Source: a virus. From it: a stretch of 49,698 nucleotides of DNA. Positions within the stretch are counted from its first letter, which is position 1; every line of letters starts with the position of its first letter. The stretch covers positions 1-49,698 of the IMG/VR virus record IMGVR_UViG_3300045988_135203. One strand, 5' to 3'. A model generated the notes under the pieces. It had not been told where the DNA came from and did not search any database. It worked only from the letters and a program-made list of their open reading frames with translations. This document shows positions 63 to 40,267 of this stretch, piece by piece. Both the position numbers and the translations under genes were made by a program.

Positions 63-185
63 TAAAGTAATTATAACTCGGCGGAAAATATGTCCGTATC
101 CCATATATCAAGTTTATGTTCCATTTTACCTATAACCTATAACCTAAATTTACCTTTCACGCTATAACTACTTTATTGAATTGCG

Positions 186-258
186 TGCGCCAGGCGGGAC
201 TCGAACCCGCGGTATCTTGATTAAAAGTCAAGTGCATTAGCCGCTGTGCTACTGGCGC
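186..258 (-). tRNA. tRNA-Lys (anticodon UUU)
   Basis: Minus-strand cloverleaf: acceptor GCGCCAG/CUGGCGC, T-arm GCGGGTTCGAGTCCCGC, anticodon loop CUUUUAA. Confidence 0.8.
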
Positions 259-329
259 AAATTGCGGATGACGAAACCGCAAGAACCATATGTTGTCATC
301 ATTTGGTATAGCTTATGTTTTAAGCTAAG

Positions 330-402
330 GGTGACTGGAGGGAATTGAACCCCCATATTCTCATCCACAGTGAGAAGTCTTAGCCATTAGACCACAGCCA
401 CC
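330..402 (-). tRNA. tRNA-His (anticodon GUG) with genomically encoded G-1
   Basis: Acceptor GUGGCUG/CAGUCAC, extra 5' G opposite discriminator C (bacterial-type His), D-stem GUCU/AGAC, anticodon loop CUGUGGA, T-loop GGGGGTTCAATTCCCTC. Confidence 0.8.
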
Positions 403-609
403 GTAATAGATTTTGAGGAGTTGCACCTCACTTACTCTCGTAAGAAATAAGAACAATCTAATTTATTGTTTAAAATCTATAGCAGTTCAGTTTCTGCTCT
501 ATATATTCCGTATTGCTTTCCTTCCTTTTATTAATAGTAGTCTAACGAAAAACAGCGTGAATATACTTTTATCATACTCTAACCGGTATTGAATATGAAT
601 ACTGTTAAA

Positions 610-681
610 CGAGCCAACGGGGAATCGAACCCCGACCTCTGGAGAGACAGTCCAGCACACTAGCCATTATGCTACAAGCCC
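610..681 (-). tRNA. tRNA-Asp (anticodon GUC)
   Basis: Anticodon arm CTGGA-CTGTCTC-TCCAG, T-arm CGGGGTTCGATTCCCCG. The acceptor stem has one U-U mismatch and several G-U pairs. Confidence 0.7.
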
Positions 682-792
682 TTAACAAGACAGGTTTAAT
701 TTCGCACTTAAAATCCTCAATTTTACGCTGTATTAGAATTTAAAATTTTGCAGTTCCTGTCTTTAATTTATATATTTATTATATAATATTTT

Positions 793-1098
793 TTAAATAT
801 TATCAATTAAATCTTTTCGTCCTTCCGCAATGTATTCTTGCTCTTGATTTTCAAGTTCATTGATTTTAAGCAAATCAGAATGTTTCCAATTTCTTTTTGC
901 ATAATATCTACTTTTGCGGTTTTTACTTTTTATAGAACACATAGGACATGAGCAATGAATTTTTCCTTTAGAATAACATCCATCATGGTTATAATAATCC
1001 CAACCATATTCCTTTTGACATATTCTTTTCTTTCTGCGGATATGCTTTGCTCGCTGTTTACGATAATAAGCTCTATCTCTATTAGGCAAATACATCAC
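793..1098 (-). CDS. Small basic Cys/His-rich protein (putative zinc-binding)
   Basis: 101-aa ORF with CxC...CxxC cluster and a Lys/Arg-rich composition. Confidence 0.5.
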   Translation of the reverse strand: MMYLPNRDRAYYRKQRAKHIRRKKRICQKEYGWDYYNHDGCYSKGKIHCSCPMCSIKSKNRKSRYYAKRNWKHSDLLKINELENQEQEYIAEGRKDLIDNI

Positions 1099-1203
1099 TC
1101 CTATTCTGTTTATAATTGAGGGGCCTGCTTACCCCCTCATGCAGCAGTTAGTCCCTGCTTGCCGAAGCCAGTTATTTAAGGGAACTGTTAGATTGCACCC
1201 TGA

Positions 1204-1285
1204 TGGGGGAGGTAGGACTCGAACCTACGATGTTTCTTTGTCACGGTTTTACAGACCGCTACCCTCGCCACTAGGTTACTCCCCC
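1204..1285 (-). tRNA. tRNA-Tyr (anticodon GUA), type II with long variable arm
   Basis: Acceptor GGGGGAG/CUCCCCC, anticodon arm GCGGT-CTGTAAA-ACCGT, long variable arm, T-arm GTAGGTTCGAGTCCTAC. Confidence 0.75.
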
Positions 1286-1594
1286 ATAAACATATTAAGT
1301 TGGACAGCTATCCTTTAGAAGACGATGCTTCTGGAGCCTTAATAACACCCCAAGTAGTTTACCATCTCTACAAACTACCAAAGATTAGAACAATTTTCTC
1401 GTTTTGTTCATTAACGTCAGATTTTTCAGCTACGAGGTATCTGAAACATACCTTTCATTAAATTCATCCCAAGTGAAGATTTATGCCTTCAACTTAAAGA
1501 TATAGACTGTGTACTTTAGTCTGCCATTCACTTCACTCTCTGAATGGTCAACCCGTAATCGAGGCTTCGGGCGCTACCCGTGCATGTCGATTAA

Positions 1595-1665
1595 CACGCC
1601 CTCAAGGAATCGAACCCTGATTAACCGGGTTGGAGCCGGCTGTAATACCATTATACCAAAGGCGC
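1595..1665 (-). tRNA. tRNA-Trp (anticodon CCA)
   Basis: Anticodon arm GCCGG-CTCCAAC-CCGGT, T-arm CAGGGTTCGATTCCTTG, D-loop TATAATGGTAT. Confidence 0.7.
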
Positions 1666-1900
1666 AAACATGATAGACACCACACTCTCTATCACTCTCA
1701 TACTTAGCAATGAGTTTTCTGCAACGTGGAAGCTATACTCACTTTTTGTCAAGCTAAAGAAGTACAAGTAAAAAGCTACATTTACCTACATTCAGGTGTA
1801 GTTCCCTCTTCAACTACAAAGCCAAGTCATATAAAATGTATAGACTAAACATTCTATATCTAATAAATTTAAAGACGTCCTCAATATATTAGATATATAA

Positions 1901-1971
1901 TTGCGGAGACGGGATTTGAACCCGTGTCTCTAGGTTATGAGCCTAGCAAGGAGCCACTCCTCTACTCCGCA
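1901..1971 (-). tRNA. tRNA-Met (anticodon CAU; elongator Met or Ile2-lysidine type cannot be distinguished)
   Basis: Acceptor UGCGGAG/CUCCGCA, anticodon arm CTAGG-CTCATAA-CCTAG, T-arm CACGGGTTCAAATCCCGTC. Confidence 0.7.
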
Positions 1972-2065
1972 CTATTTTCAAGACACCTTTTGTCAACCGA
2001 AATTTTATTTTGAAGGTCTATTATATTGCTGAAAAGTGTCTTTTTTATTTATTTTGTATATATAT

Positions 2066-2094
2066 ATTATATATTATTTTTTATAAAAAATCAA
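2066..2094 (-). promoter_or_regulatory. Class A promoter upstream of the tRNA cluster
   Basis: Conserved module AAATTGATTTTTTATAAAAAATAATATATAATATATAC. Confidence 0.55.
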
Positions 2095-2242
2095 TTTAAA
2101 ATTTTTAACCAAGACATTTGTAAAGGTTTTGTTTTTACGGTTACTAAACTCTTTACTCTAAACCTACCGTCAATCATCAACCCAAATGATAATCTTTTTC
2201 TTGTTAGAAAATATTTGCTGTTTAAATGTCTTTTATATACTT

Positions 2243-2271
2243 ATTATATATTATTTTTTATAAAAAATCAA
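2243..2271 (-). promoter_or_regulatory. Class A promoter (tandem with 2066-2094)
   Basis: TTGATT-N17-TATAAT with conserved AT-rich spacer. Confidence 0.55.
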
Positions 2272-2273
2272 TG

Positions 2274-2621
2274 TTAAGAAAATGACCAGCCATTTTTCTT
2301 AATAATTCTCATCATATTATCCCTACCAACAGGATTCATAGAATGAATATGAAATGTAGCATCAATTTGCCATCCATCTACATGCTGCTTTTCTTCAAGC
2401 CATTCAAGAAACTTAATATAATCTCCCCCAAACATCCGCATTTCACCCGCATCATGGTCAAGACTTACATCTCCAAGATATAAACATCTTTTTCCAGAGT
2501 AAGAAAGCTCTGTCTCCGCTGTACAAGCAATAATCGCCGCATATACACTTCTAAGCCATGTATAATCAGAAGGTGCGGGTCTCACATCATCAATCCACAG
2601 ATTTGTCTTCATACTCTCCAT
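2274..2621 (-). CDS. Hypothetical protein
   Basis: 115-aa ORF. A class A promoter lies downstream of its stop and the gene is tightly packed with 2590-2865. Confidence 0.55.
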   Translation of the reverse strand: MESMKTNLWIDDVRPAPSDYTWLRSVYAAIIACTAETELSYSGKRCLYLGDVSLDHDAGEMRMFGGDYIKFLEWLEEKQHVDGWQIDATFHIHSMNPVGRDNMMRIIKKNGWSFS

Positions 2622-2865
2622 CCTCTTTCATAACTTCAATTATACCCTGATGTATAAGATAACGTTCCCATTTTTCTGGATGCTCATTACTTCCTACTAA
2701 AGTAGTAAGCATTTCTGGGGTGTATAATCCTAAATCTCCAGGAGGATTAATACTAAATATATTTGCCGCTTTCTTTACTGCAGCTCTGAGCATTCTTACT
2801 TTTTTCTCTAAGTGAAGAATTTGTGTATACAAAACTTCTTCTCTCGTCTTGGTTAAATCACTCAT
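2590..2865 (-). CDS. Hypothetical protein
   Basis: 91-aa ORF directly preceded by a class A promoter at 2898-2926. Confidence 0.6.
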   Translation of the reverse strand: MSDLTKTREEVLYTQILHLEKKVRMLRAAVKKAANIFSINPPGDLGLYTPEMLTTLVGSNEHPEKWERYLIHQGIIEVMKEDGEYEDKSVD

Positions 2866-2897
2866 TTTTATTTACCCTCTCTTAACTTTCTATAAAT

Positions 2898-2926
2898 ATT
2901 ATATTATAATTTTTATAAAAAATCAA
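2898..2926 (-). promoter_or_regulatory. Class A promoter for 2590-2865
   Basis: TTGATT-N17-TATAAT. Confidence 0.55.
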
Positions 2927-2939
2927 TTAAGAATAAAAG

Positions 2940-3488
2940 CTACTTTTCTTTCCATTGATGGCGTCTTTGGGATTTCCAGTTTCGCTCTCTAACACGATAC
3001 CAATCATCCCACCAACCATCAGGATAATCATTTCTACTACCACGGTTAAATTCCTTAAATTCAGGATTATCATACATTGCCGCAACCTGTCTAATTTTTC
3101 GTGGGCGTGTATGTGGACCACCTTTGTGTTTATGAATTCCTTCTACTGGTTCTCTGCGGAACTCACCACGATAAGTTTTGTTTTTCTTATACCTTTTCCA
3201 CCTCTGCTCAGAAGTTTCTAGTGGAAGATTTTTATACTTCTCTACCCAAAACAAATGTGCAGATTTGTAATAAATGTGCGGGTCAATCTGACGACCATAA
3301 CCATCATAATACTGGTCATTCATGCGGTCATTAACCAGAAAACCCCAAACATCTTTACGAAAACCTCTTGCTAAGTATCCAATAAATTCTCTTTCATTTT
3401 TAGCAATGCGCTGAATAGTTAAGTGCATATAGAATTTATTAAAACTATAACAATAAATTTCTTCTTTAGGCATTTCAATATTGTACAT
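2940..3488 (-). CDS. Hypothetical basic Trp/Tyr-rich protein
   Basis: 182-aa ORF with strong coding composition. Nested antisense ORFs were discarded. Confidence 0.6.
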   Translation of the reverse strand: MYNIEMPKEEIYCYSFNKFYMHLTIQRIAKNEREFIGYLARGFRKDVWGFLVNDRMNDQYYDGYGRQIDPHIYYKSAHLFWVEKYKNLPLETSEQRWKRYKKNKTYRGEFRREPVEGIHKHKGGPHTRPRKIRQVAAMYDNPEFKEFNRGSRNDYPDGWWDDWYRVRERNWKSQRRHQWKEK

Positions 3489-3541
3489 AGTAATCTCCTT
3501 TTTAAATTAAATTATTGGATAACTACCATATATCAAACTCC

Positions 3542-3745
3542 TTATGGACGAAGTATGCCTTCATCTGTCACTTCATATACATCCAAAATCTTCGTATAAT
3601 AACCTTGGAAATTTGGATATTTTTCTTTTACAAACTGAACTGCTTTATCCGCATCTGTAGTAAGTACAAAATTACACATAGCATACGTTTTCAGCATTTC
3701 ATCATCAAGGTCAAAAATAACTTTAAAAACTTTCATATTTATCAA
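3542..3745 (-). CDS. Hypothetical small protein
   Basis: 67-aa ORF with GAGG-type RBS context. Confidence 0.45.
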   Translation of the reverse strand: MINMKVFKVIFDLDDEMLKTYAMCNFVLTTDADKAVQFVKEKYPNFQGYYTKILDVYEVTDEGILRP

Positions 3746-3752
3746 CCTCCAA

Positions 3753-3874
3753 TGCCCAGAGAAGGACTTGAACCTTCACTCTAATAATAGAAACAGATTT
3801 ACGTCGCTAAATTGCAGTATAAGTATTTTACAAAACTTTTTAGCTTCTGCCGCGTCTACTTCCGCCATCTGGGC
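3753..3874 (-). tRNA. tRNA-like gene with ~45-nt insertion in the anticodon region (intron-containing, type II or pseudo-tRNA)
   Basis: Perfect acceptor GCCCAGA/TCTGGGC and T-arm GAAGGTTCAAGTCCTTC with a 3-bp D-stem. The anticodon stem GCAGA/TCTGT is separated by an AT-rich insert, and a canonical cloverleaf is only possible if this is spliced or ignored. Confidence 0.35.
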
Positions 3875-4134
3875 TTAATGATTATTCGATTGCCAATCAG
3901 GTTATCACCCTAGAAGTTTATGGACCTCCTCTTGGTGTATAAAGTCATACTCGCGGGCATTTTTAATTTCCTCTTATCTTTTTGTCCTTTATACGCTTCC
4001 AAAACCAAGCCAGGATTTACTTGCTTTACAGAAAACATTACTTTTCCAACCCTTGCAACAAAGTCACTAACGCTCTTTTAAACACTCGAATAAGCTTCAC
4101 CTATTATATTTATAGCTAGCATATCACTATAAAA

Positions 4135-4211
4135 TCCGGATTCTGGGATTCGAACCCAGGACAAACACCGCTTATAAGGCGGCCGCTCTAACCTGACTGA
4201 GCTAAACCCGG
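4135..4211 (-). tRNA. tRNA-Ile-like (anticodon UAU), 7-nt variable loop
   Basis: Typical TAGCTCAGTCAGGTTAGAGC D-arm, anticodon arm GCCGC-CTTATAA-GCGGT, T-arm CTGGGTTCGAATCCCAG. The acceptor starts with C. Confidence 0.6.
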
Positions 4212-5931: not shown

Positions 5932-6288
5932 TTATAATCCTAATTCTTCAAGGATTGGTAAGATTTTATCTTCAAACTGCGGATACAGTTTATATAAAGT
6001 CTGTCTAGCGTTCAATGGTTTGTCTGGTTTTGTGTATCTTGCACATTCCCAATCAATTACCATCTGTACAAAATCGCTATGTGTTTTTGCTTTTACAGTA
6101 TGATGTTTAGCATGATTTCTGTGAAAGTTATGTACTTTCTTATAGTCAAAGAAAGGATACAAAAATACTTTATCCAGGTCATGAAAAAGACTTCTTACTG
6201 TATTGTAGCCAAGGAGTTCTTTTTCGATTTTTCTAAAAGCTTTTCTGTGAGCTAATGTGTATTTGATTCTTTCTTTGTTTTTAATCAT
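5932..6288 (-). CDS. Hypothetical protein
   Basis: 118-aa ORF preceded by a class A-like promoter at 6346-6374 and an AGGAGAGG RBS. Confidence 0.6.
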   Translation of the reverse strand: MIKNKERIKYTLAHRKAFRKIEKELLGYNTVRSLFHDLDKVFLYPFFDYKKVHNFHRNHAKHHTVKAKTHSDFVQMVIDWECARYTKPDKPLNARQTLYKLYPQFEDKILPILEELGL

Positions 6289-7121: not shown

Positions 7122-8410
7122 TATTTATTCTCCTCTTCTATTTTTAAAATTTTATAATCTTTAAATTTTCTTCTTATTGCGGGTAAAAAATCTTCATAGC
7201 ATTCCCCACAAACGAATGAGCCATTATAATCAAGTTGATTTCCACAGATTACACAAGATACTCTTCCACCAATGCGGAATTTAGGTACGATTCTACCAGA
7301 TTCATCAAAAACACTATTTACTGCAGTTCGATAATGAGAATTCCCCCAATACCAATGTGAAATTTCTTTTACTTTATAAGCATATTGTGGAATATAGCAA
7401 CTAGACCTTAATAAATCATTAAAGTCAAGACTACCTGGAGCATCAATAATAATGTCATTTAAAGGCACAGCTTTACTATTGATTACCATATATTTATCAT
7501 ACAATTCTTCGTCGAAAGAAGCTAAAAAATTCTCCCCATCCATTTTTAAACCAATCCTTCCAGAAATGTATTGATTGGTGAAATCAGTATATTTGCAATT
7601 TAAAGAAGGTTCAATTAACTCTTTTTTAGCTAAATTAAGTCCAACATTAGAAGTAAAAGGATATTGTCTGCCTGCAAACATAATATCCCAAGTATCAGAT
7701 AAATGAATCCAAACTCGCCACTTCTTAGAATTCCATGGAACTTCAGTAGGAAAATCTGGTAAAATATAATCTTTTTTATCCGCCCGCAGATAGCACATAA
7801 TAGTATGCTTATCTACCATATAAGATAGATTACCCGCACGAAAATCACCATCTAAAGCATGACAAGAATGCCAGCTATGACAATTCTCACTGGCTGATAA
7901 ATAGTCTAATGGATGTACTGAAAGACATAATGTTCCTGTAATTTTATCTTCCTGAATGAGCATACTTGCGGCGTTCTGTAGATTTTCAAGCTTTTTAGAA
8001 TCTTTCTCAAAAAATTTAAAGGCTTTAATAATTTTCATGCCTTTTGGAATTTTTTCTCCATCATATTCAAAGTCTTCAACGACTTTGTTTTCATAAAAAC
8101 CATCTTTCTGTATATCAATGAATCTGGCAAGGTCTGAATTGTCATGGTTACAATCAACAGAAGTTAAAAAATCTTTTACTCTTCGTATTTTTTCTTCATC
8201 TGAAAGTTCAAAAGTAACTTTTTTAGGTAATTCAATGATAAATTTACCCCCAAAAGCTTCAATAAAATCTCTTTTTGCATTGAGCCATTCTTCAAAAAGG
8301 CTGTCAGTATTTACAAACCTCTCTCCTGGAACTTTAGGAATTTCCTGCGAATAATGAATTACAAGCTCAAATTGCTCCTGGATTTTCTTAATTTCATCAT
8401 TGAATACCAT
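7121..8410 (-). CDS. Large paralog 1 of a duplicated family (HPLDY...WNSKKWR core, C-terminal CxxC zinc ribbon)
   Basis: 429-aa ORF sharing S[VI]HPLDY-x7-N-x3-W-SC-x4-DG-x-[FY]R-G and WNSKKWR with 10956-12710. The C-terminus reads CVICGN...CGEC. Confidence 0.7.
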   Translation of the reverse strand: MVFNDEIKKIQEQFELVIHYSQEIPKVPGERFVNTDSLFEEWLNAKRDFIEAFGGKFIIELPKKVTFELSDEEKIRRVKDFLTSVDCNHDNSDLARFIDIQKDGFYENKVVEDFEYDGEKIPKGMKIIKAFKFFEKDSKKLENLQNAASMLIQEDKITGTLCLSVHPLDYLSASENCHSWHSCHALDGDFRAGNLSYMVDKHTIMCYLRADKKDYILPDFPTEVPWNSKKWRVWIHLSDTWDIMFAGRQYPFTSNVGLNLAKKELIEPSLNCKYTDFTNQYISGRIGLKMDGENFLASFDEELYDKYMVINSKAVPLNDIIIDAPGSLDFNDLLRSSCYIPQYAYKVKEISHWYWGNSHYRTAVNSVFDESGRIVPKFRIGGRVSCVICGNQLDYNGSFVCGECYEDFLPAIRRKFKDYKILKIEEENK

Positions 8411-16897: not shown

Positions 16898-17315
16898 TTA
16901 ATTCATCAATAACATAACATTCATTTTCTTTAATATTATTGAAATTAACATTTAAAGCAGAAATTCCAAAAATGATGTTATCATCAGTTCCAAGAGGTAA
17001 CTTAGCAAGATATAAGTAACTATCTTTGCGATAAATGTATTTGTATCCCTGAGTATAATTTTTTAAAAAATCGTGTTCAAGTTTAGTGATAAGTGGAACA
17101 TATGGGGCTGAAGCCCATTCCAAAGCACGATATTTACAATTAAAAAGCATTTGATGCGGATTTGTACGAACGCAATCAAATAAACAATTATCGCATTCGA
17201 TTGCTTCGCAAGGTGTTAATGTCCTATCTTTTTTATCAATGGCAAAACCGCTGCTACTAAAGTTAGTTATTTTAAGAATTTCATCTTTGTAATGCTCAAA
17301 ATTAGTTTTCATCAT
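16860..17315 (-). CDS. Cys-rich hypothetical protein
   Basis: 151 aa with CEAIECDNCLFDC...C motifs. Confidence 0.55.
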   Translation of the reverse strand: MMKTNFEHYKDEILKITNFSSSGFAIDKKDRTLTPCEAIECDNCLFDCVRTNPHQMLFNCKYRALEWASAPYVPLITKLEHDFLKNYTQGYKYIYRKDSYLYLAKLPLGTDDNIIFGISALNVNFNNIKENECYVIDELIAAHTTINCEKE

Positions 17316-17884
17316 GCATCAAAGTCTTTTCCGAAATGTTTTGCCAAAAGGAAAAGGCTAAATCTTGGGATACAAGCATAGTTTTTAAAAGTAGGACGGT
17401 CGATTTCACGTAATACAAAATCAAGGTCAAACCAGCTAACTGCCGCAATTTCCTCTTCCTGAATTTTAAAGTTGTTTATTTTTGTATCTTCTGGAACTTC
17501 ATAAAGATAAACATATGCAAGTTCTTTATCAATAAATTTTTTACCATGAAATACTTCAGTATAATCAATATTCATTGTTGAAAGAAATTTAAGCTTATCT
17601 TTATCAGTTTTGATACCGAGCTCTTCTGAAAGTTCTCTTAATGCTCCCTGCTCTGTTGTTTCACCTGCTGGAACATGACCTGCGCATGAAGTATCCCATT
17701 GTCCCGGGTAAGAATCTTTATTGAATGCGCGCAGCTGTAAGAGAATTTGCGGTTTTCCATTTTTGTATCTTATAACCCATACATGGGAAGTATGATGGCG
17801 GTATCCTTTAGCATGACATACATCTCTTGGTGCGGTTTTACCTGTTAAACGTCCAAATTCATCAATAATATCGAAATATTCCAT
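17312..17884 (-). CDS. NUDIX hydrolase
   Basis: Canonical Nudix box GHVPAGETTEQGALRELSEELGI (G-x5-E-x7-REUxEExGU). The start is trimmed to MEYFDII, which has a GGAGGA RBS. Confidence 0.85.
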   Translation of the reverse strand: MEYFDIIDEFGRLTGKTAPRDVCHAKGYRHHTSHVWVIRYKNGKPQILLQLRAFNKDSYPGQWDTSCAGHVPAGETTEQGALRELSEELGIKTDKDKLKFLSTMNIDYTEVFHGKKFIDKELAYVYLYEVPEDTKINNFKIQEEEIAAVSWFDLDFVLREIDRPTFKNYACIPRFSLFLLAKHFGKDFDA

Positions 17885-17888
17885 ATAA

Positions 17889-18128
17889 TTAATCCTCCGG
17901 CATAAAATAAGTTTTTGTATCTCGTTTGTAAGCATCCATAACCGCACAAAAGACTTGTTTCGCTCTTTCAAGAGTTTTATAACTTCCTAATTTGCGGCTA
18001 TTATACATCATATATTCTCCAACGGGGAAAGCTAAAATCTTACTTTCCCCATCGCCCCCGTTAATTACACTTATTGTAATCTGTTCTATTGGAACTGATG
18101 TTGTTTTTTTCTGATTTATTATAAGCAT
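17889..18128 (-). CDS. Hypothetical protein
   Basis: 79-aa ORF whose 3' end contains the RBS of the NUDIX gene. Confidence 0.5.
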   Translation of the reverse strand: MLIINQKKTTSVPIEQITISVINGGDGESKILAFPVGEYMMYNSRKLGSYKTLERAKQVFCAVMDAYKRDTKTYFMPED

Positions 18129-18927: not shown

Positions 18928-19134
18928 ATGGGAATGCTCCTAATAGATGAAAATAATATTACTGATAATGCTTTAATGTATATTGGATTTGATTTAGGTA
19001 TTGGAACGGATGATTGTATGTGCTTTAAAGTAGACCCAGATACTGGCGCGCAATGGCAAGCATTAGACCAAGTTAAATATGCAGAAAAGGTTAGAGAAAC
19101 AATTCGTGTAGATTATGAAGAGGAAGAGGATTAA
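18928..19134 (+). CDS. Small acidic hypothetical protein (plus-strand island)
   Basis: 68-aa ORF whose TAA overlaps the start of the next gene (TAATATG). Confidence 0.5.
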   Translation: MGMLLIDENNITDNALMYIGFDLGIGTDDCMCFKVDPDTGAQWQALDQVKYAEKVRETIRVDYEEEED

Positions 19135-19135
19135 T

Positions 19136-19582
19136 ATGACTGGAAGAATAGGTTCATGGAAAGGCATGGATGTTATTAAAGTTGGAAAGTATGAGTATGA
19201 TACCAGTAGTGAAATAAACCCTAAGAAATATATTTATGCGGTTTATAATTTAATTGGTGATGGAAATACTTATTTAATTAAGGATGATACTGTATTCGCG
19301 CAGTTACTTAATGAAGATGGCGATATTGATATGGTTGAAGAGAAGAAATATTATAGACCTGGAGAATTTAGTGTTCTAAAAAAGTATAAGAGAAAATTTA
19401 AAGATGCAGAGGGTGAATTTACTTTTAGTAAAGAAACTGTTTGTTTTAATGAGGATATACTTCCAAAAGGGAAAAGTAAAAATGCGGGAAAGCGCGCTGC
19501 CATTAAAACGGTAGATGATTGGATAGGATTTGGTATGAATGCTACTGTAGAAGAAATACTTAAAGGAAAGGGAAAAAGCTAA
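19136..19582 (+). CDS. Hypothetical protein (plus-strand island)
   Basis: Start MTGRIGSWKG with a GAGGAAGAGGA RBS, followed by the bidirectional terminator at 19593-19630. Confidence 0.55.
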   Translation: MTGRIGSWKGMDVIKVGKYEYDTSSEINPKKYIYAVYNLIGDGNTYLIKDDTVFAQLLNEDGDIDMVEEKKYYRPGEFSVLKKYKRKFKDAEGEFTFSKETVCFNEDILPKGKSKNAGKRAAIKTVDDWIGFGMNATVEEILKGKGKS

Positions 19583-19592
19583 CGCTTTTTCC

Positions 19593-19630
19593 TAAAAAAA
19601 TAAAAGGCTTAAAAGCCTTTTATTTTTTTA
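19593..19630. terminator. Bidirectional intrinsic terminator between convergent genes
   Basis: AAAAAAATAAAAGGCTTAAAAGCCTTTTATTTTTTTATT, a hairpin flanked by an A-run and a T-run. Confidence 0.7.
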
Positions 19631-20678: not shown

Positions 20679-20764
20679 TTAATATACCGAAGGTATAGGC
20701 GATAGCCATTTCCTTTTCCTTTTCTTTATTATGATGAAAACTTCGTTTTCATCTTTATGTATAT

Positions 20765-20793
20765 ATAATATAATATTTTTTATAAAAAATCAA
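20765..20793 (-). promoter_or_regulatory. Class A promoter for 20280-20678
   Basis: TTGATT-N17-TATTAT. Confidence 0.5.
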
Positions 20794-20825
20794 TGGGGTA
20801 AGATGAATGGCAATAAAGAGAATGG

Positions 20826-20997
20826 TAAATGGCGATTTGGCCTTGAAATTTTTAAATAGAATCATAATAAATGGTGAATTGCCCTTGAAATTTTTAAGTT
20901 AAATTGTCCTAAATTACGATTTGGCTTTTAATTTTTTAAATAGAATCATAGTAAATGGCAAAATGCCCTTGAAATTTTTAAGTTAAATTGTCCTAAA
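20826..20997. repeat. Tandem direct repeats (about 2 x 86 bp, each of two ~43-bp sub-repeats)
   Basis: AAATGG(C/T)GA(A/T)TTG(G/C)CCTTGAAATTTTTAA(A/G)T(A/T)(G/A)AAT... recurs four times, alternating with TAGAATCATA(A/G)TAAATGG and GTTAAATTGTCCTAAAT. Confidence 0.65.
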
Positions 20998-21039
20998 TCT
21001 TAAATAAATCATTTAAGATAGTGATTTGCCCTGCGCGGC

Positions 21040-21165
21040 CCTCGGCCAAGCACTCCCAAATTAAGTTCTTCCTCTCCATAAACCGAAATAAAAATATTAA
21101 TATGGGCGAAGCCAAGCACTCACATTTCTAATTCTTCCTTTCTGAAAACCGAAATAAAAATATTC
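21040..21165. repeat. Two ~57-bp direct repeats
   Basis: G(C/A)(C/A)AAGCCAAGCACTC(C/A)CA... T(T/A)CTTCCT(C/T)TC(C/T)... AACCGAAATAAAAATATT occurs twice. Confidence 0.6.
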
Positions 21166-21481
21166 TATTACTAGGGGACCCATTTCAAATATTCAAATGA
21201 AAAATTCAAAACCTCAAGGAACAAAGCAAAAATTGAACTGAAACAAAAATCTCTCAACTGCTGCTTAAGAACAAGCTTTAATAGGAAGTGATTAAATTTC
21301 ATCTACCCTATATATTTGTAATAAAATTAATCATTTTTCCTTAGACTCGTGGTGTCATAAAAACAAGAATCAGCAAAGTGGTTAAGAAAATTTCGTCTCA
21401 TATATAATGGGTGAGTGCAAAAAGTTAACCACTTTGTTAAAATCTCTTATAGAAGTCTAAAGGCTGGCCTTTAGGTAAACC

Positions 21482-21535
21482 ATGGACACTTTTTGTGTAT
21501 ACTATATATACATAGTATACACAAAAAGTGTCCAT
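21482..21535. repeat. Perfect 24-bp inverted repeat with 6-nt spacer
   Basis: ATGGACACTTTTTGTGTATACTAT atatac ATAGTATACACAAAAAGTGTCCAT, about 55 bp upstream of the plus-strand promoter of 21668-22354. Confidence 0.8.
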
Positions 21536-21588
21536 CCTTTGCAGAGGGTCCAGAGGATTATTGCTTACTTCAACTTTGGACAAAAGGA

Positions 21589-21617
21589 TTGAACTAGTTT
21601 AAAATAAATTATATAAT
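21589..21617 (+). promoter_or_regulatory. Plus-strand sigma70-type promoter for 21668-22354
   Basis: TTGAAC-N17-TATAAT just downstream of the 24-bp palindrome. Confidence 0.5.
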
Positions 21618-21667
21618 ATATAGAGGATAAAACCTCAATAAAATTTTTTAGAAAGGAAAAATACAAA

Positions 21668-22354
21668 ATGAATCAAGTGAATTTAAGTAGAACTGCATTA
21701 AATAAAAAATGCGGTTTAACGTCAAAACAATGGACTCGTTATCACGATAGTATTATTACTTATTTAAGTGAATACTTTAAAGTATTTGAAGAACACAAAA
21801 CAGAAGGAAATCTTTATTATTATGTAATTGGCTATGATAACGAATGGCCAGAAATCCCAAAATTTAGTATTAGAAATTTTAACAAACAACAGCGTGAACA
21901 AGATTATGAAGAATTTGTTAAAGGTAATTTACCAAATGAATTTGCACCAGAAAGTAAAGCTAGAATGTCAAGAGTTGCCATTAGAGAATTTGGTAATAGA
22001 AAATATAGACATTGTAGTAGTCAAGCAGTTGCAGAGCGTTATGTTGGTCCAGCTATGGAAAAGTTTGGAGAAAAAAGCGGTGTTAAAGTTTGGGTAAATC
22101 ATAAAACTTATACTAAATTAGATAAAGAACAACATGAGTTTTTAAAAGAATGTTTTGAAAGATTTGATTTACCAGAAGCTAAAAGAGCTAAGATATTAGA
22201 CCAAATTTGTTCAGCTATTCAATGTGGTGAAACAAATGTTCAAAGTCTTATTCCACTTAATACTTATCAACAAGTATTAGATGCTTTTAAACAGCGCTAT
22301 GATTTTATTCCAATAGTAGTAGATGAATGGAGAGCTAAAGAAGCAGCATGGTAA
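21668..22354 (+). CDS. Putative DNA-binding regulator or replication-initiator-like protein (N-terminal HTH-like segment); lone plus-strand gene
   Basis: 228 aa with the N-terminal segment LSRTALNKKCGLTSKQWTRY, its own plus-strand promoter TTGAAC-N17-TATAAT at 21589-21617, and flanking related repeats. Confidence 0.6.
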   Translation: MNQVNLSRTALNKKCGLTSKQWTRYHDSIITYLSEYFKVFEEHKTEGNLYYYVIGYDNEWPEIPKFSIRNFNKQQREQDYEEFVKGNLPNEFAPESKARMSRVAIREFGNRKYRHCSSQAVAERYVGPAMEKFGEKSGVKVWVNHKTYTKLDKEQHEFLKECFERFDLPEAKRAKILDQICSAIQCGETNVQSLIPLNTYQQVLDAFKQRYDFIPIVVDEWRAKEAAW

Positions 22355-22461
22355 TGTAGGGGAGAGATTTATTCTCTCCCTTTTATTTTTGCGGCGACGC
22401 AGGTTCATCACTCTTATAGCTGGAATTAAAGTAGAATAGGGGCAGTAAAATCTTATATAAA

Positions 22462-22506
22462 TTATATATAGTATTCACAGGAAGTGTACCTATTCGTCAG
22501 AGGGTC
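22462..22506. repeat. Direct-repeat copy of the right arm of the 21482-21535 palindrome plus CAGAGGGTC
   Basis: AGTATTCACAGGAAGTGTACCTATTCGTCAGAGGGTCTCGATT resembles 21514-21556 AGTATACACAAAAAGTGTCCATCCTTTGCAGAGGGTCCAGAGGATT. Confidence 0.6.
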
Positions 22507-22599
22507 TCGATTAAATCTACGGAGCGGCAGCAGGTGCGCGAATAAAATTATCTTTTTTTAATATTATAACATAATATAAATAATTAATCAATAATTCTC

Positions 22600-22888
22600 A
22601 TTACCCTCGCCCGCATTAAAGAACGAGTCTCCGTTTTGGCTTAAAGAAACCGCAGGTTTCTTTAGCCTAATGAGGAGACAAATTTGGGGCGCGCCCTTTT
22701 TAAAGGGCGCAAGGGCTTCTTCCCGCAATTCACTTTACTCATGGATAAGAGCCATATGCTAGGTAATGCGGCCGGGTGCGCGGTTTCGGGAAAATTAGGC
22801 GCCATATGAAAACCGCTAGAAGTAGAAAAAAATCGCCATATGGGGTTCGCGAGCGGGAATTCGGGCCTTGCCTGTCGTCGGCGGCCCG
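22600..22888 (-). ncRNA. Candidate ~290-nt GC-rich structured noncoding RNA
   Basis: A GC-rich island in an AT-rich genome driven by a consensus promoter. Nested helices include GUCUCC...GGAGAC enclosing GGCUAAAGAAACC-UGC-GGUUUCUUUAAGCC, GGGCGCGCCC/AAGGGCGC, and CAUAUG repeated three times. Only Arg-rich ORFs without an RBS are present. Confidence 0.4.
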
Positions 22889-22890
22889 CC

Positions 22891-22920
22891 ATTATATCAC
22901 ACTTATCATTCTTTTGTCAA
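22891..22920 (-). promoter_or_regulatory. Minus-strand promoter of cassette 1 driving the GC-rich ncRNA candidate
   Basis: TTGACA-N17-TGATATAAT. Confidence 0.55.
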
Positions 22921-23048
22921 GCCCTTTTCTGCATTTAATTTCGATTCAGCAATTTGCACAAATCTAACCTTCAAAATTCGTCAAATTGCACAAACCGCAA
23001 AAATGCACAAAAAAGAGAGCAAATCCGCTCTCAATTTTGTTTATTATT

Positions 23049-23348
23049 TTAAAAAATGTAAGTTGCGTATAAAATACAATCAGCTACTGGTTCTGTCTGA
23101 TTATTTACCGTAGTGGCAAATGCAACAGCCACCGCGTAAATATCACATCCAGGAGAATCGAACACATGGTCACATTCAACCTCAAAATCAAATTTTTCAT
23201 TATCTTCTGGAATATATTCTTTTCCAACTTCTGAGATAACATCTTCAAATGACTCATCGTTTTCATTTATCTCTTTCCAACAGTCATCTCCCTCACTCCA
23301 AAATCCTCTTTTAATTAACATCTTTTCCAGATAATCTGCAAAACTCAT
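23049..23348 (-). CDS. Acidic hypothetical protein
   Basis: 99 aa with promoter TTGACT-N17-TATACT at 23380-23408. Confidence 0.55.
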   Translation of the reverse strand: MSFADYLEKMLIKRGFWSEGDDCWKEINENDESFEDVISEVGKEYIPEDNEKFDFEVECDHVFDSPGCDIYAVAVAFATTVNNQTEPVADCILYATYIF

Positions 23349-23379
23349 TTTTTATACCTCTCTTTCATTTGTTGAATTA

Positions 23380-23408
23380 AGTATACCATGTTTTAATTAA
23401 AAAGTCAA
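23380..23408 (-). promoter_or_regulatory. Class B promoter for 23049-23348
   Basis: TTGACT-N17-TATACT overlapping the terminator hairpin at 23413-23439. Confidence 0.5.
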
Positions 23409-23409
23409 G

Positions 23410-23440
23410 CGTTTTGGGGAAAATTTTCCCCAAAACTTAC
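23410..23440 (-). terminator. Terminator hairpin after 23440-23838 overlapping the next promoter
   Basis: GTTTTGGGGAAAATTTTCCCCAAAAC, a 10-bp stem, then a U-rich stretch on the minus strand. Confidence 0.5.
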
Positions 23441-23838
23441 TATTTTTTGGCTTTTCGCTTCTGGACAAGCGTTAATTCATAGTCATTTGAACCAATTTGA
23501 AAGAAAATCTGCCTTTCTGTATTGGTAATTTGTACATTTTCCGCACAAATTTCAGAATTTTCATTCAAAAACCGCTCAATTTCAGTAATAATCTTCTGTT
23601 TTACAGGGTTTTCTTTCTTCTTTTTGGCGGTATCGAACTTGTAAACAGTTCGTTTTTTTGTACCCGTACCCGCATATTTTTTAGCAACTTTTTTCTGCTC
23701 GGCGGATAACTCAAACAACTTTTCGCCCTTGTCAACCGCTTTATCATCCATGACCAACTGAATTGCTTCTGCTTCTGGAATGTCAAGGACTTTCATGTGA
23801 TGTTTTACAAGTTCCATGTCTTTTTGTGTAAGTTTCAT
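23440..23838 (-). CDS. Lys-rich protein, paralog family 2 (with 28807-29181)
   Basis: Shares MELxDI..EEA.Q...DD...DKGEKLF.L..EQ.K..KK ... KKTVYKFDT.K.KK.EN..KQ.IIT ... ENV..TN.ER with 28807-29181. Confidence 0.65.
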   Translation of the reverse strand: MKLTQKDMELVKHHMKVLDIPEAEAIQLVMDDKAVDKGEKLFELSAEQKKVAKKYAGTGTKKRTVYKFDTAKKKKENPVKQKIITEIERFLNENSEICAENVQITNTERQIFFQIGSNDYELTLVQKRKAKK

Positions 23839-23868
23839 AAATTATCAACTCCTTTATTTGATATATTT

Positions 23869-23897
23869 ATTATACTACCTTTTGGCTATTTTGTCAA
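23869..23897 (-). promoter_or_regulatory. Class B promoter for 23440-23838
   Basis: TTGACA-N17-TATAAT. Confidence 0.6.
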
Positions 23898-23927
23898 GGG
23901 TTCGGGGGAAAATCCCCCGAACTTTCT
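23898..23927 (-). terminator. Terminator hairpin after 23928-24302 overlapping the next promoter
   Basis: GTTCGGGGGATTTTCCCCCGAAC, a 10-bp stem. Confidence 0.45.
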
Positions 23928-24302
23928 TCATTCCTCAACAAGTGTAAAATAAGCTCTACGTTTTTCAACAACTCTATCAACTTTACCCTCTTTATAAAGG
24001 GCGGTAACAAGAGAAGTAACACGCTGATTAGTAAGTTCCGCAAGGTCTGGAACGGTTTTCATCATTTCAGATACAGTCTGTTTGTCAACTGTTTTGAGAT
24101 GAGCAAGGATTTTGACCTTGAGTTCCTCATTTTCTACCTGAGTGGCGGTAGGTTTTTTATTTGCGGAAGATTTTTTGTTTACCTGTGCAAGCATTTTCTG
24201 AAGCTTTTCAACAACCTCATCATACTGGTTATCTTCTTTCAGAACCTCGATTGCAGTTTCCAGTGCCATAGCGTTTGTCATTTTTTTGTTTGTCATAATC
24301 AT
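23928..24302 (-). CDS. Winged-helix-like protein, paralog family 1 (with 25693-26061 and 29228-29608)
   Basis: Shares N-terminal MTNAMALE.A.EVLKE and C-terminal ELTNQRVTSLVTALYKEGKVDRVVEKRRAYF (ArsR/MarR-like wing). Confidence 0.65.
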   Translation of the reverse strand: MIMTNKKMTNAMALETAIEVLKEDNQYDEVVEKLQKMLAQVNKKSSANKKPTATQVENEELKVKILAHLKTVDKQTVSEMMKTVPDLAELTNQRVTSLVTALYKEGKVDRVVEKRRAYFTLVEE

Positions 24303-24328
24303 TACCTCTTTCTTTATTTTATGTATTT

Positions 24329-24357
24329 ATTATATCACTTCTATATTCAGTTGTCAA
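24329..24357 (-). promoter_or_regulatory. Class B promoter for 23928-24302
   Basis: TTGACA-N17-TATAAT. Confidence 0.6.
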
Positions 24358-24461
24358 GACTTTTTTAAAACTTTTTTATTTTGGTGGGCTTCTCATTTTT
24401 ATTATCTCCCTTCCTTTATCTTTATACTTATTATAACACCCTTGTGGCTTTTTGTCAAGTG

Positions 24462-25070
24462 TTAATTTACATATTCTGCAAAAAATTTGTCTGCTTCTGT
24501 CATGTCAAAATGTTCGCTAATAAAGCGGTCATTCTTAAAAAAGCTGTTCGGGTATTTTTTGATATACTTTGCTCGAAACATAGACTCTACACCCTCAGCC
24601 GGCAGATTACCGCAGTCATAAACCCTATTAATAACGCAATAGGTTGCTCCCATGCCTTTATAAGTTTTTGAATTTAGTTCTTCTCTGATTCTCTGGAATA
24701 CGCTTCTTGTGGTTGTGCCGACTTTACTGCATACAAGTTCCATCTGTTCATTGAAAAATGCAATTAAATAACATTTTTCTAAACCTTTAGAATCATCCCA
24801 TGTCTTACAATCTTCTGAAATTGCAATACCCTCTTTTTTAATTTTTGCGGTAACGACTTTCCGCACATCTGTAATTTTATTAATTACTTTTTCTACTGGA
24901 TTGAGAACGTATGTTTTTACCCATTCTTTACTACTGGAATAAATCTTTTCACATACTTCAAACCAACGTTTTTTCCAACAAGGTGAAGTTGCTTTCCATC
25001 TTTCGTATGCACCCTCAAAATCATTGTTTTCCAGATACCAGTCCATTTTTTTATTTGCCATTTTTATCAA
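24462..25070 (-). CDS. Hypothetical protein
   Basis: 202 aa with a class B promoter at 25095-25123. Confidence 0.6.
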   Translation of the reverse strand: MIKMANKKMDWYLENNDFEGAYERWKATSPCWKKRWFEVCEKIYSSSKEWVKTYVLNPVEKVINKITDVRKVVTAKIKKEGIAISEDCKTWDDSKGLEKCYLIAFFNEQMELVCSKVGTTTRSVFQRIREELNSKTYKGMGATYCVINRVYDCGNLPAEGVESMFRAKYIKKYPNSFFKNDRFISEHFDMTEADKFFAEYVN

Positions 25071-25094
25071 TCCTCTCTGTTTTTCTATGTCTTT

Positions 25095-25123
25095 ATTATA
25101 GCACCTATTGGTTAGCTTGTCAA
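25095..25123 (-). promoter_or_regulatory. Class B promoter for 24462-25070
   Basis: TTGACA-N17-TGCTATAAT (extended -10). Confidence 0.6.
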
Positions 25124-39105: not shown

Positions 39106-39401
39106 CTTATAATTACCGTTCCATGCTTTCCTTCTTTTCTCAACCTCTCCAAAACTGGATGGCAGGAATTTTTTTCATTCATAAATACAATAGCAAAATC
39201 AAGTTCTTTAATATAATCATTAAATGCGCCAAAAAAATATTTTTTGCCGGAACCATTATTTTCTGCCCATTTATCTCCCAAAGAATTGGGAGAACACACT
39301 ATATTAAATAAATATGTCCCCTTTATTTCAATAAGCTCATTTAATCTTTTGTCCAAAAGGTCATAATCATCAAGTGTGCCTCCAATTATTCCTACATTCA
39401 T
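39102..39401 (-). CDS. SLOG/DUF2493-like Rossmann-fold protein (YpsA/DprA-like)
   Basis: VGIIGGT ... LGDKWAENNG ... ELDFAIVFMNE ... GTVII pattern typical of DUF2493 SLOG domains. Confidence 0.5.
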   Translation of the reverse strand: MNVGIIGGTLDDYDLLDKRLNELIEIKGTYLFNIVCSPNSLGDKWAENNGSGKKYFFGAFNDYIKELDFAIVFMNEKNSCHPVLERLRKEGKHGTVIIR

Positions 39402-40267
39402 GCGATTGGCTCAATAAAAATTAACTTATCAATATAATCTCTATCCGCACCTTTGAAAATAGGAATTTTATAATCTATTTTCCATTTGCGGCGAACAATT
39501 ATTCTTTCACCAATTTGTTCTCCAAAATAAACATTTGGCTCTTTAATTGTTTCTTTAATTGTTTCTTTTTCTTCTATTTTGATACATGCGGTACCGCGTT
39601 TACATGGAATTGTAAAGTCATTCCAATTAATTCCACATTGAGTCATTAGCATATCTTGAATATCATTACAAGTTTTATCTTTAAGTTTGGCATGTGAAAA
39701 ACAAGCTTGTCCCACCATTTGAATACTATTCCGCGTTGCATCCAATTGCCGCCAATAAATAAGATTAGTTACTTCTTCTTTTGGAATATTAAAACATCTT
39801 GCGTCAAACATTGCTCCTTTTTCTGCGGCATTTACATATCTTTCAATAAGCCTTTTATTTCCCTCTATAAGAGGGTCATGAGTCGAATTATATTTAATTA
39901 TATTCTCAGAAAAATATTTATTAAAAGCCATTGTTGCCATAGAAGCTGATACGGAAGCCATTTTCTGAACCTCATAATTAAACCAAGCCTCTGAGGTTAA
40001 CTTTTGGTAATCAGTTAAAATTAAAGTAATTTCATCTGATTGAGTATATCCAAAAATACAACCCTGAATATTTTCACAAAGATACTTCATTGTCCTTTGC
40101 ATCGTATCCATTAATACAGGATCAAATGGTTTCTGAAAGCCTCGTGTAAAAGTATGAAAAGCTTTTCCATCAAGCCTAATAGCTACTGGCATGCGGCGAA
40201 GTAATTGTGTTTTTGCGGGATTTTCATAAAAATCTTTCATTCTTGCGGCAAGTTCACTATTATCCAT
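39398..40267 (-). CDS. Thg1-like protein (tRNA-His guanylyltransferase family 3'-5' nucleotidyltransferase)
   Basis: VAIRLDGKAFHTFT, YTQSDEITLIL and IYWRQLDATRNSI match the Thg1/TLP core motifs (RLDG-x-FH-x-F, YGQSDE, WRQ-D). Confidence 0.75.
   Translation of the reverse strand: MDNSELAARMKDFYENPAKTQLLRRMPVAIRLDGKAFHTFTRGFQKPFDPVLMDTMQRTMKYLCENIQGCIFGYTQSDEITLILTDYQKLTSEAWFNYEVQKMASVSASMATMAFNKYFSENIIKYNSTHDPLIEGNKRLIERYVNAAEKGAMFDARCFNIPKEEVTNLIYWRQLDATRNSIQMVGQACFSHAKLKDKTCNDIQDMLMTQCGINWNDFTIPCKRGTACIKIEEKETIKETIKEPNVYFGEQIGERIIVRRKWKIDYKIPIFKGADRDYIDKLIFIEPIA

Follow-up and report, generated by a model that had tools for sequence, protein, structure and literature searches.

A replaceable early-gene cassette with a long perfect palindrome and a predicted winged-helix protein in uncultured gut phages

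IMG/VR virus record IMGVR_UViG_3300045988_135203 was analysed over its positions 1 to 49,698, and this whole stretch of 49,698 nt is called the window throughout. It is part of a low-GC (~31%) tailed-phage genome, and the locus under study sits within the early-gene arm, surrounded by minus-strand early operons. The locus comprises a plus-strand gene for a 228-amino-acid (aa) protein of an apparently undescribed family (21668–22354) and a long perfect palindrome upstream of it (21482–21535). We observed this anatomy directly, and comparison with relatives showed that such palindromes accompany the gene family as a whole, that the two palindrome arms evolve in a compensated manner and that the gene-bearing segment is replaced as a cassette. 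Our leading but tentative explanation is that the locus is an early-gene cassette open to replacement, which would encode a protein that binds DNA site-specifically, with the palindrome as its cognate site and with probable autoregulation.

The palindrome has 24-nt arms (ATGGACACTTTTTGTGTATACTAT) around a 6-nt centre, ATATAC, and imperfect complementarity around it reaches 21464–21553. It is the longest perfect hairpin of the 49.7-kb window, where perfect stems reach 16 bp or more in just five places; in 30 block shuffles the maximum stem length was 9–15 nt, and the fold z-score of the palindrome DNA was −8.6. The arm is present in three copies in the window, all at this locus, with 0 matches expected by chance. 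Unlike in a terminator, no T-run stands behind the stem. A first-pass annotation of this DNA, made from the letters alone, had noted the perfect 24-bp inverted repeat at this position, a helix-turn-helix-like N-terminus of the gene product and a degenerate copy of the right arm downstream; the repeat was recovered exactly, with its 6-nt centre, and the other two features also reappear below, the former in a predicted structure.

To survey the pairing of gene and palindrome we scanned family loci, i.e., contigs carrying family members (cited below by L numbers); further relatives were found via the left-flank gene. An upstream palindrome with a TATA-rich centre was present in seven of nine independent gene contexts having enough upstream sequence, with arms of 17–34 bp located 54–233 nt upstream of the gene. 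The arms measured 24–34 bp in window-type phages (127–135 nt upstream), 25 bp in both L002 (166 nt) and L016 (233 nt), 24 bp in L011 (142 nt), 21 bp in L018 (129 nt), 19 bp in L013 (54 nt) and 17 bp at both gene copies of L014 (100 nt for the first and 205 nt for the second). The pairing spans lineages with proteins ~24–44% identical to the window protein and with unrelated flanks. Local hidden Markov model (HMM) searches revealed tandem paralogues in L018 (877–1530 and 1981–2706), L011 (399–1079 and 1184–1588) and L012. In L011 the palindrome lies upstream of the first copy. In L018 a 35-bp-arm palindrome seemingly downstream of gene 1 is located 144 nt upstream of gene 2, and therefore each L018 paralogue has its own palindrome.

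An exhaustive profile search yielded 215 cluster representatives of the protein family (E ≤ 1e-3), 53 of which reach E ≤ 1e-30. Nearly all measure 215–265 aa, and every one comes from a metagenomic contig whose gene content is phage-like. Their alignment has a conserved core and a C-terminal domain, with W142 and Y148 nearly invariant. The window protein, the family members and an alternative gene described below (gene X) gave nothing above noise in Pfam, PHROGs, NCBIfam and PADLOC, and a sequence profile search of the PDB with the family gave no match. In the AlphaFold2 model (pLDDT 80) the N-terminus forms a beta-alpha-alpha-alpha-beta-beta unit, the sole fold matches of which were winged-helix DNA- or RNA-binding domains (PadR, E2F/DP, forkhead, ROQ); Foldseek searches of PDB and BFVD revealed no significant match for the whole protein. 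The model thus predicts an N-terminal winged helix, in keeping with the helix-turn-helix-like start noted earlier. Megablast and tblastn searches of 50,697 GenBank phages gave no match to the region, the 228-aa protein or two family members. A degenerate DNA pattern for GPAMEK[FY]GE recovered one viral locus and five true metagenome loci, and its two matches in bacterial genomes (metagenome-assembled genomes of Caulobacter and Rhizomicrobium) are probably due to chance; the anchor GGGGACCCATTTCAAAT, searched in viral contigs, added only a chance match, L042. Judged by sequence, the family appears to be undescribed and unannotated.

Comparison of alleles showed how the palindrome changes. The inner arm block varies among four window-type alleles (TACAC, CGGAA, TTCAC and TTGAC) and is always exactly mirrored. 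Between L002 and L016, the proteins of which are 91% identical, a 7-nt arm block differs (GGTACAC vs. TTGATGC) with compensation on the opposite arm, and the 15-nt palindrome centre is reverse-complemented; flipped centres were also seen in L001 vs. L004 and in the window vs. L038. The L036 palindrome has arms of up to 34 nt and no loop. Counting outward from the centre, the allele-conserved arm positions are TATAGTA, A13, AA16–17, TG19–20 and C23, a pattern that looks like protein contacts. Mirror symmetry at the variable arm positions, in turn, points to base pairing or to a homogenising mechanism, e.g., intrastrand template switching. The unusual part of the locus is the palindrome itself, which is perfect, with arms that evolve in concert and a centre that flips.

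Compensatory changes that keep pairing would be expected if the palindrome acted as RNA, as a 24-bp hairpin carried by a long 5′ leader or a separate transcript, e.g., as an RNase III processing or stability site. On the plus strand, 21100–21660 is rich in A, as a sense strand would be, and by our own reading a weak promoter-like TGGTTA-N18-TATAAT is located upstream of the palindrome, inside a second inverted repeat (IR1, see below). However, the palindrome stands upstream of the best promoter, the few mismatches seen where copies are imperfect are of G-G, C-C or T-T type and not G-U wobbles, the symmetry is equal on both strands, and flipping of the centre is a DNA-level event. Rfam searches with gathering and E-value thresholds returned only tRNAs, and the matches to the palindrome, far below threshold, were to generic hairpins. 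We therefore consider a role as RNA very unlikely.

Pairing could also act at the DNA level. The palindrome might be extruded as a hairpin or cruciform with a dedicated structure- and sequence-specific winged-helix partner, the two forming a new cis/trans module (a hairpin-type origin or DNA processing). Arm symmetry at unconserved positions, flipped centres and chimeric arms would in that case be traces left by hairpin chemistry in vivo. We give such a module a small chance. A DNA-processing site for hairpin-telomere resolution, cruciform cleavage or a genome terminus, where the protein is or recruits the processing activity, seems highly improbable to us. Perfect palindromes of 52–68 bp with an alternating TA centre do resemble telRL-type sites, and the centres are found in either orientation. 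The first base of contigs L025 and L026 falls right at the palindrome centre, and the 97-kb L028 contig ends just past the right arm. These contig ends are explained by assembly, because perfect palindromes break assemblies, and De Bruijn assemblers do so regardless of DNA ends. Moreover, unique sequence is present on both sides of the palindrome in the window and in many relatives, no tyrosine-recombinase-like resolvase or protelomerase was found within the window, and near-invariance of W142 and Y148 only is unlike an active site.

Cassette replacement was revealed by contigs L027 and L029, which align to the window on both flanks while 21564–22503 is replaced by ~1150 nt with the 268-aa gene X. 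The swap boundaries coincide with a repeated element, which reads ...CAGAGGGTC on the left and GGTCTCGATT on the right, where homology resumes. The left boundary falls in a CAGAGGGTC(CAG) motif (21542–21564), where the alignments to L029 and L027 (both as reverse complements) end at 21554 and 21564, respectively; the right one, at ~22503, falls in a degenerate copy of the palindrome element (22434–22506). The N-terminus and a C-terminal segment of gene X match the family HMM (E = 8.6e-7 and 1.5e-9), and hhalign of gene X against the family gave E = 5.8e-5 over 57 winged-helix columns, with ~18% identity in the winged helix. By these alignments the swap appears to be an allelic replacement by a distant homologue, as opposed to presence or absence of a foreign moron. 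The inserted cassette considered by the first-pass annotation is upheld in so far as synteny with L027 and L029 shows the segment to be replaceable, and falls as regards a foreign moron gained or lost. Upstream noncoding elements described below (iteron core, conserved block and IR1) all persist in L027 and L029, with IR1 duplicated and moved. The palindrome of gene-X phages is hybrid or imperfect, and that of L029 is chimeric, since its left arm follows the L001 type and its right arm that of the window.

The degenerate element downstream of the gene retains the right arm intact, with a decayed left arm, and ends in CAGAGGGTC. Over 53 nt (22454–22506) it shares 72% identity with the right arm together with CAGAGGGTC, which bears out the degenerate arm copy reported earlier. 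The outer pair GAATAGG/CCTATTC still matches in this copy, and the left flank GCTGGCCTTTAGGTAAA is also present in L026 at the downstream copy. Comparison with relatives shows that what has decayed here is a copy of the entire palindrome element and not of a single arm. The right arm of the downstream copy (22467–22489) equals the upstream palindrome arm of L025 at 23 of 23 positions and resembles the L036 arm. Given the identity to L025, the two element copies seem to exchange sequence between lineages. The most economical history would start from ancestral tandem palindrome-plus-gene units, followed by loss of the second gene and then by an allele swap through recombination at the shared element.

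Boundaries at a repeated element are also what shuffling like that of PeSL (promoter plus stem-loop) cassettes would produce, where the palindrome elements are recombination-prone regulatory motifs flanking a shuffled accessory gene and the function of the protein is unrelated to the palindrome. PeSL-mediated modular shuffling has been documented in T4-type phages (PMC2839356). In the window the region consists of successive small early genes whose promoters fit the consensus, the L029 palindrome is chimeric, and a second indel is located at ~22946, bounded by repeated TGCACAAAAAAGAGGG. Relatives carry an extra ~580 nt there with a 103-aa minus-strand gene (7281–7867 in L001; 7657–8236 in the reverse complement of L027), so that the early region holds a second polymorphism of the cassette type. 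We nevertheless regard shuffling of this kind as unlikely, since the element is confined to this locus in the 49.7-kb window, and the palindrome has no terminator T-run, follows the gene family across distant lineages with unrelated flanks and precedes both tandem paralogues of L018.

The 228-aa gene has its own promoter, TTGAAC-N17-TATAAT (21589–21617, plus strand), and an intrinsic terminator (22358–22382, plus strand). Six nt upstream of the −35 hexamer lies a TGGACA box (21577–21582, plus strand). The motif TGG[AT][CT]A[AC] is common to the outer palindrome arms (ATGGACAC), the IR1 arms (GTGGTTAA) and the promoter-proximal box (TTGGACAA). Its five copies within 250 nt (21375–21625) form the densest cluster of the window (background 1.27 per kb) and are arranged as two inverted pairs 45–46 nt apart plus the promoter box. 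Of 15 family or gene-X loci, 13 have a similar box ~70–100 nt before the ATG, and L002 and L016 carry an additional ATGGACAC just left of the palindrome. The purine of GG(A/G)CA agrees between promoter box and arms in all five comparable alleles (A in the window, L001 and L025; G in L026 and L036) and tracks protein residue K14/R14.

We also considered the palindromes as symmetric bidirectional promoters and dropped this idea as a general account, as it is plausible for the window, L018 and partly L011 and is inconsistent in L013 and L014. The palindrome of the window ends 54 nt before the −35 hexamer; the right arm of L013 carries TTGACA 60-odd nt upstream of the ATG, with no −10 at the right spacing.

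An autoregulated DNA-binding protein is favoured, indirectly, by the predicted winged-helix N-terminus, the link of gene and palindrome and the shared GG(A/G)CA boxes. By the same indirect evidence (fold, palindrome link, boxes), an autoregulated repressor locus is the best supported of the three readings offered by the first-pass annotation. That the protein binds DNA and regulates itself is what we infer, as is any part played by a hairpin, and the mechanism could be as follows. The cassette would be self-contained, with a sigma-70-type promoter, one gene and an intrinsic terminator, and the cognate sites of the protein would be GG(A/G)CA-type boxes. Two inverted boxes would be provided by the outer arms of the palindrome, ~130 nt upstream of the gene, and a third by the box just before the −35 of the promoter that serves the gene. 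Protein dimers would occupy the dyad and the promoter-proximal box, and their binding would set the protein's own level and probably also transcription starting in or passing the control region. Symmetry over the full arm length could mean that the site acts as a hairpin or cruciform, or that it undergoes continual homogenisation by intrastrand template switching. The iteron array would be a separate element, probably read by another factor, because a swap of the gene leaves it in place.

Several points weigh against such a regulator cassette. Operators are normally 15–25 bp in total, and fully perfect arms of 24–34 bp are needless for a repressor. The palindrome lies ~55–110 nt upstream of the −35, off the promoter, and the inverted repeats IR1 and IR0 are highly conserved whichever gene is present. 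No long palindrome was found upstream of the family gene in L021 and L024. The box motif was defined post hoc, and TGGACA is also a 5/6 match to the −35 hexamer. The co-variation of box, arm and residue 14 could partly reflect linked inheritance.

The noncoding stretch upstream of the gene spans ~990 nt (20679–21667) rather than the 860 bp of the first-pass annotation, whose main repeats were found in it with one change of length. Its four copies of a ~43-bp repeat correspond to an iteron-like array (20826–20998) with a 42-nt period and 3.7–4 copies, which is really 2 × 84 nt at 89%. Its two copies of a 57-bp repeat are indeed two, and 54 nt long (21045–21098 and 21111–21164; 81% identical), with a GC-rich junction, gccctgcgcggccctcgg, just before them; the second copy is a duplication private to the window, and relatives have one. 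The inverted repeat that it drew around a central sequence is IR1 (21375–21435), where AAAGTGGTTAA (21375–21385) pairs with TTAACCACTTT (21425–21435) around TATATAAT. The iteron core is AAAT[GAT][GA][CT][GA]A[TA][TA]TG. The array is hypervariable (2–8 core copies in relatives, with a spacing of mostly 31–42 or 83 nt) and just 52–78% conserved.

Other parts of the stretch are far more constant. A noncoding block at 21140–21262, A-rich on the plus strand (AT skew +0.35 to +0.43), shows 91–97% identity among relatives, above most of the coding gene; a 43-codon minus-strand open reading frame (ORF) at 21171–21302 looks non-coding and was rejected as a gene. IR1 is 94–98% conserved; the L001 equivalent is 16 nt at 94%, and in L027 IR1 is duplicated and placed downstream of the palindrome. 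IR0 (21286–21336) is a degenerate dyad, AAGTGATTAAATTT ... AAAATTAATCATTT, flanking TATATA. With one mismatch allowed, its arms are 12 nt in L004-type phages and 16–18 nt in L036/L038, and its L029 counterpart (6137–6200 of the reverse complement) is a near-perfect dyad of ~23–24 nt, a length judged by eye. Beyond the gene, noncoding DNA at 22540–22900 is 96–99% identical. The centres of IR0, IR1, the palindrome and the promoter −10 are spaced ~97–105 nt in the window. In L014, 3590–3905, upstream of the family gene, consists of about four tandem 87–105-nt units, each with a TATA-centred dyad.

These elements would also suit a replication origin with its initiator, where the protein binds the palindrome or the iterons and melts the TATA-rich centre and transcription from strong promoters on either side may help in activation. 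The layout is classical, with 42-nt (four-turn) direct repeats and dyads followed by the gene for a ~230-aa, putative winged-helix protein. The repeat array is hypervariable, as is often the case for iterons, and the surrounding noncoding DNA is more conserved than the coding DNA. Conserved noncoding blocks (21140–21262 and 22540–22900) with promoters firing inward are consistent with a transcription-activated origin, and assemblies of relatives break both at the array and at the palindrome. Palindromic AT-centred origins bound by a viral origin-binding protein are known, e.g., herpes simplex virus oriS/UL9 and SV40.

On the other side, the iteron core, as AAAT[GA]GCGATTTG, and IR1 are kept in L027 and L029 despite the gene swap, an indirect sign that iteron sequence does not co-vary with the 228-aa gene. 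DnaA boxes in the window are at chance level, with no enrichment or cluster, and GC skew has no switch beyond the gene-orientation effect. Tandem paralogues (L018, L011/L012), which in L018 each have their own palindrome, suit regulators better. Among the neighbours of family genes in relatives no helicase, loader or primase was present in any locus, and the sole functional clue was one ScpB-like protein in L002. The protein has no sequence relation to RepE/Rep_3: Pfam matches of 93 members and of the window protein included no Rep family, and hhalign of the family profile against F-plasmid RepE gave a probability of 0.45%. Thus, of the origin with initiator put forward by the first-pass annotation the iterons are real, whereas their tracking of the gene, a RepE/Rep_3 relation and DnaA-box enrichment were not borne out. 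We consider an origin the main rival reading, possible but rather doubtful.

Five contigs start within ~20 nt of each other, at window ~20796–20812, just left of the first iteron (L003, L006 and L010 at their position 1, and L004 and L007, also at position 1). These contigs come from different samples and assemblers, and three of them begin at the identical base. The shared start may mark a physical end of the DNA, or assembly may have broken there owing to repeats or strain variation. Together, the palindrome and the iteron array account for the recurrent contig breaks in assemblies of these phages.

Downstream of the gene, a minus-strand promoter, TTGATT-N17-TGTTATAAT (22591–22563), fires through the degenerate element toward the 3′ end of the gene. 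On the minus strand of this stretch (22380–22591) the terminator stem lacks a T-run, so transcripts from this promoter may extend, as antisense, into the 228-aa gene; a promoter of equivalent layout is found in L002 at 7133–7178. Next to it, 22600–22920 (minus strand) is noncoding, has 48–54% GC in a ~31% GC genome and is 96–99% identical in relatives. It is preceded by a perfect TTGACA-N18-TATAAT promoter (22920–22891, minus strand) and ends in a long hairpin (22679–22627) followed by a U-rich tail. We regard it as a candidate structured RNA of ~270 nt, for which Rfam gave no match and the fold z-score was −2.1.

The wider setting holds early and late genes. Seven clustered tRNA genes (185–4211), tRNA-His among them, and ~40 kb of small minus-strand genes with many perfect TTGACA-N17-TATAAT promoters are accompanied by a plus-strand late block with a sigma-factor-like gene, terminase and portal. 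Five perfect (12/12) TTGACA-N17/18-TATAAT promoters are found inside 2.3 kb at 22891–25123 (minus strand), as is typical of a phage early or host-takeover region. The first-pass annotation had described the plus-strand promoter and gene as the only ones in the area. Both are present, but they are not alone, as plus-strand ORFs also occur at 18928–19134 and 19115–19582. The latter form a second small plus-strand island (18928–19582; 68-aa and 155-aa ORFs) 2 kb left of the locus, which ends at an 18-bp perfect hairpin (19593–19630); no family matches were obtained for its ORFs. We also noted a NUDIX hydrolase gene (17312–17971) and a Thg1-like tRNA-His guanylyltransferase gene (39398–40267; Pfam E = 1.5e-30).

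The portal protein shares 55% identity with its counterpart on a gut virome contig and 38.6% with the portal of phage phAss-1. Phages of the phAss-1 group are uncultured siphoviruses of the gut, ~136 kb in size, which recode TAG and probably infect Clostridia (PMC10607447), and the host of the window phage probably also belongs to Clostridia (PMC10607447). In L024 and L017, called genes contain in-frame stops under table 11, which suggests stop-codon recoding as in the phAss-1 group (PMC10607447).

A new protein family with a recognisable cis partner offers a concrete hypothesis on DNA binding. If the locus is regulatory, it provides a handle on early-gene control in ~90–135-kb uncultured gut phages; if instead it serves as an origin or acts through a hairpin, this would constitute an origin of a new type.

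Among known systems, N15 telRL-type protelomerase sites share with the window an internal perfect palindrome of ~50–70 bp with an alternating pyrimidine-purine centre beside a gene. They differ in that no resolvase-like enzyme is found in the window and the adjacent 228-aa protein has no conserved catalytic set. RTP of Bacillus subtilis is a small winged-helix protein, the gene of which lies just downstream of Ter inverted repeats bound for autoregulation. Differences are that RTP is a 122-aa protein, that no specific similarity was seen and that fork arrest has no support at this locus. PeSL cassettes of T4-type phages (PMC2839356) likewise hold a small early gene between related stem-loop/promoter motifs at which polymorphism boundaries fall, but the window motif is undispersed, tied to one protein family in distant phages and not of the terminator type.

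Iteron replicons (F RepE, P1 RepA, lactococcal theta RepB), made up of an AT-rich region, iterons, inverted repeats and a rep gene, have the same order of direct repeats, inverted repeats and a gene for a ~230-aa winged-helix protein (predicted as such in the window), with at least three phased direct repeats by the gene (here 4 × 42 nt) in variable copy number. They differ by the absence, in the window, of a Rep_3 match and of DnaA boxes, by the RepE hhalign value of 0.45%, by an iteron core that is constant across gene alleles and by a palindrome far longer than a rep operator. From lambdoid immunity regions and PadR/MarR-type regulators the locus departs in its fully perfect arms of 17–34 bp, in a dyad ~55–110 nt upstream of the −35 and in a protein that lies outside every described regulator family by sequence and the C-terminal two-thirds of which have no known fold match. 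With these same systems it shares a small protein of predicted winged-helix type with its own promoter, upstream dyads with a related half-site at the promoter, and exchange of the whole gene for a distant homologue between conserved flanks.

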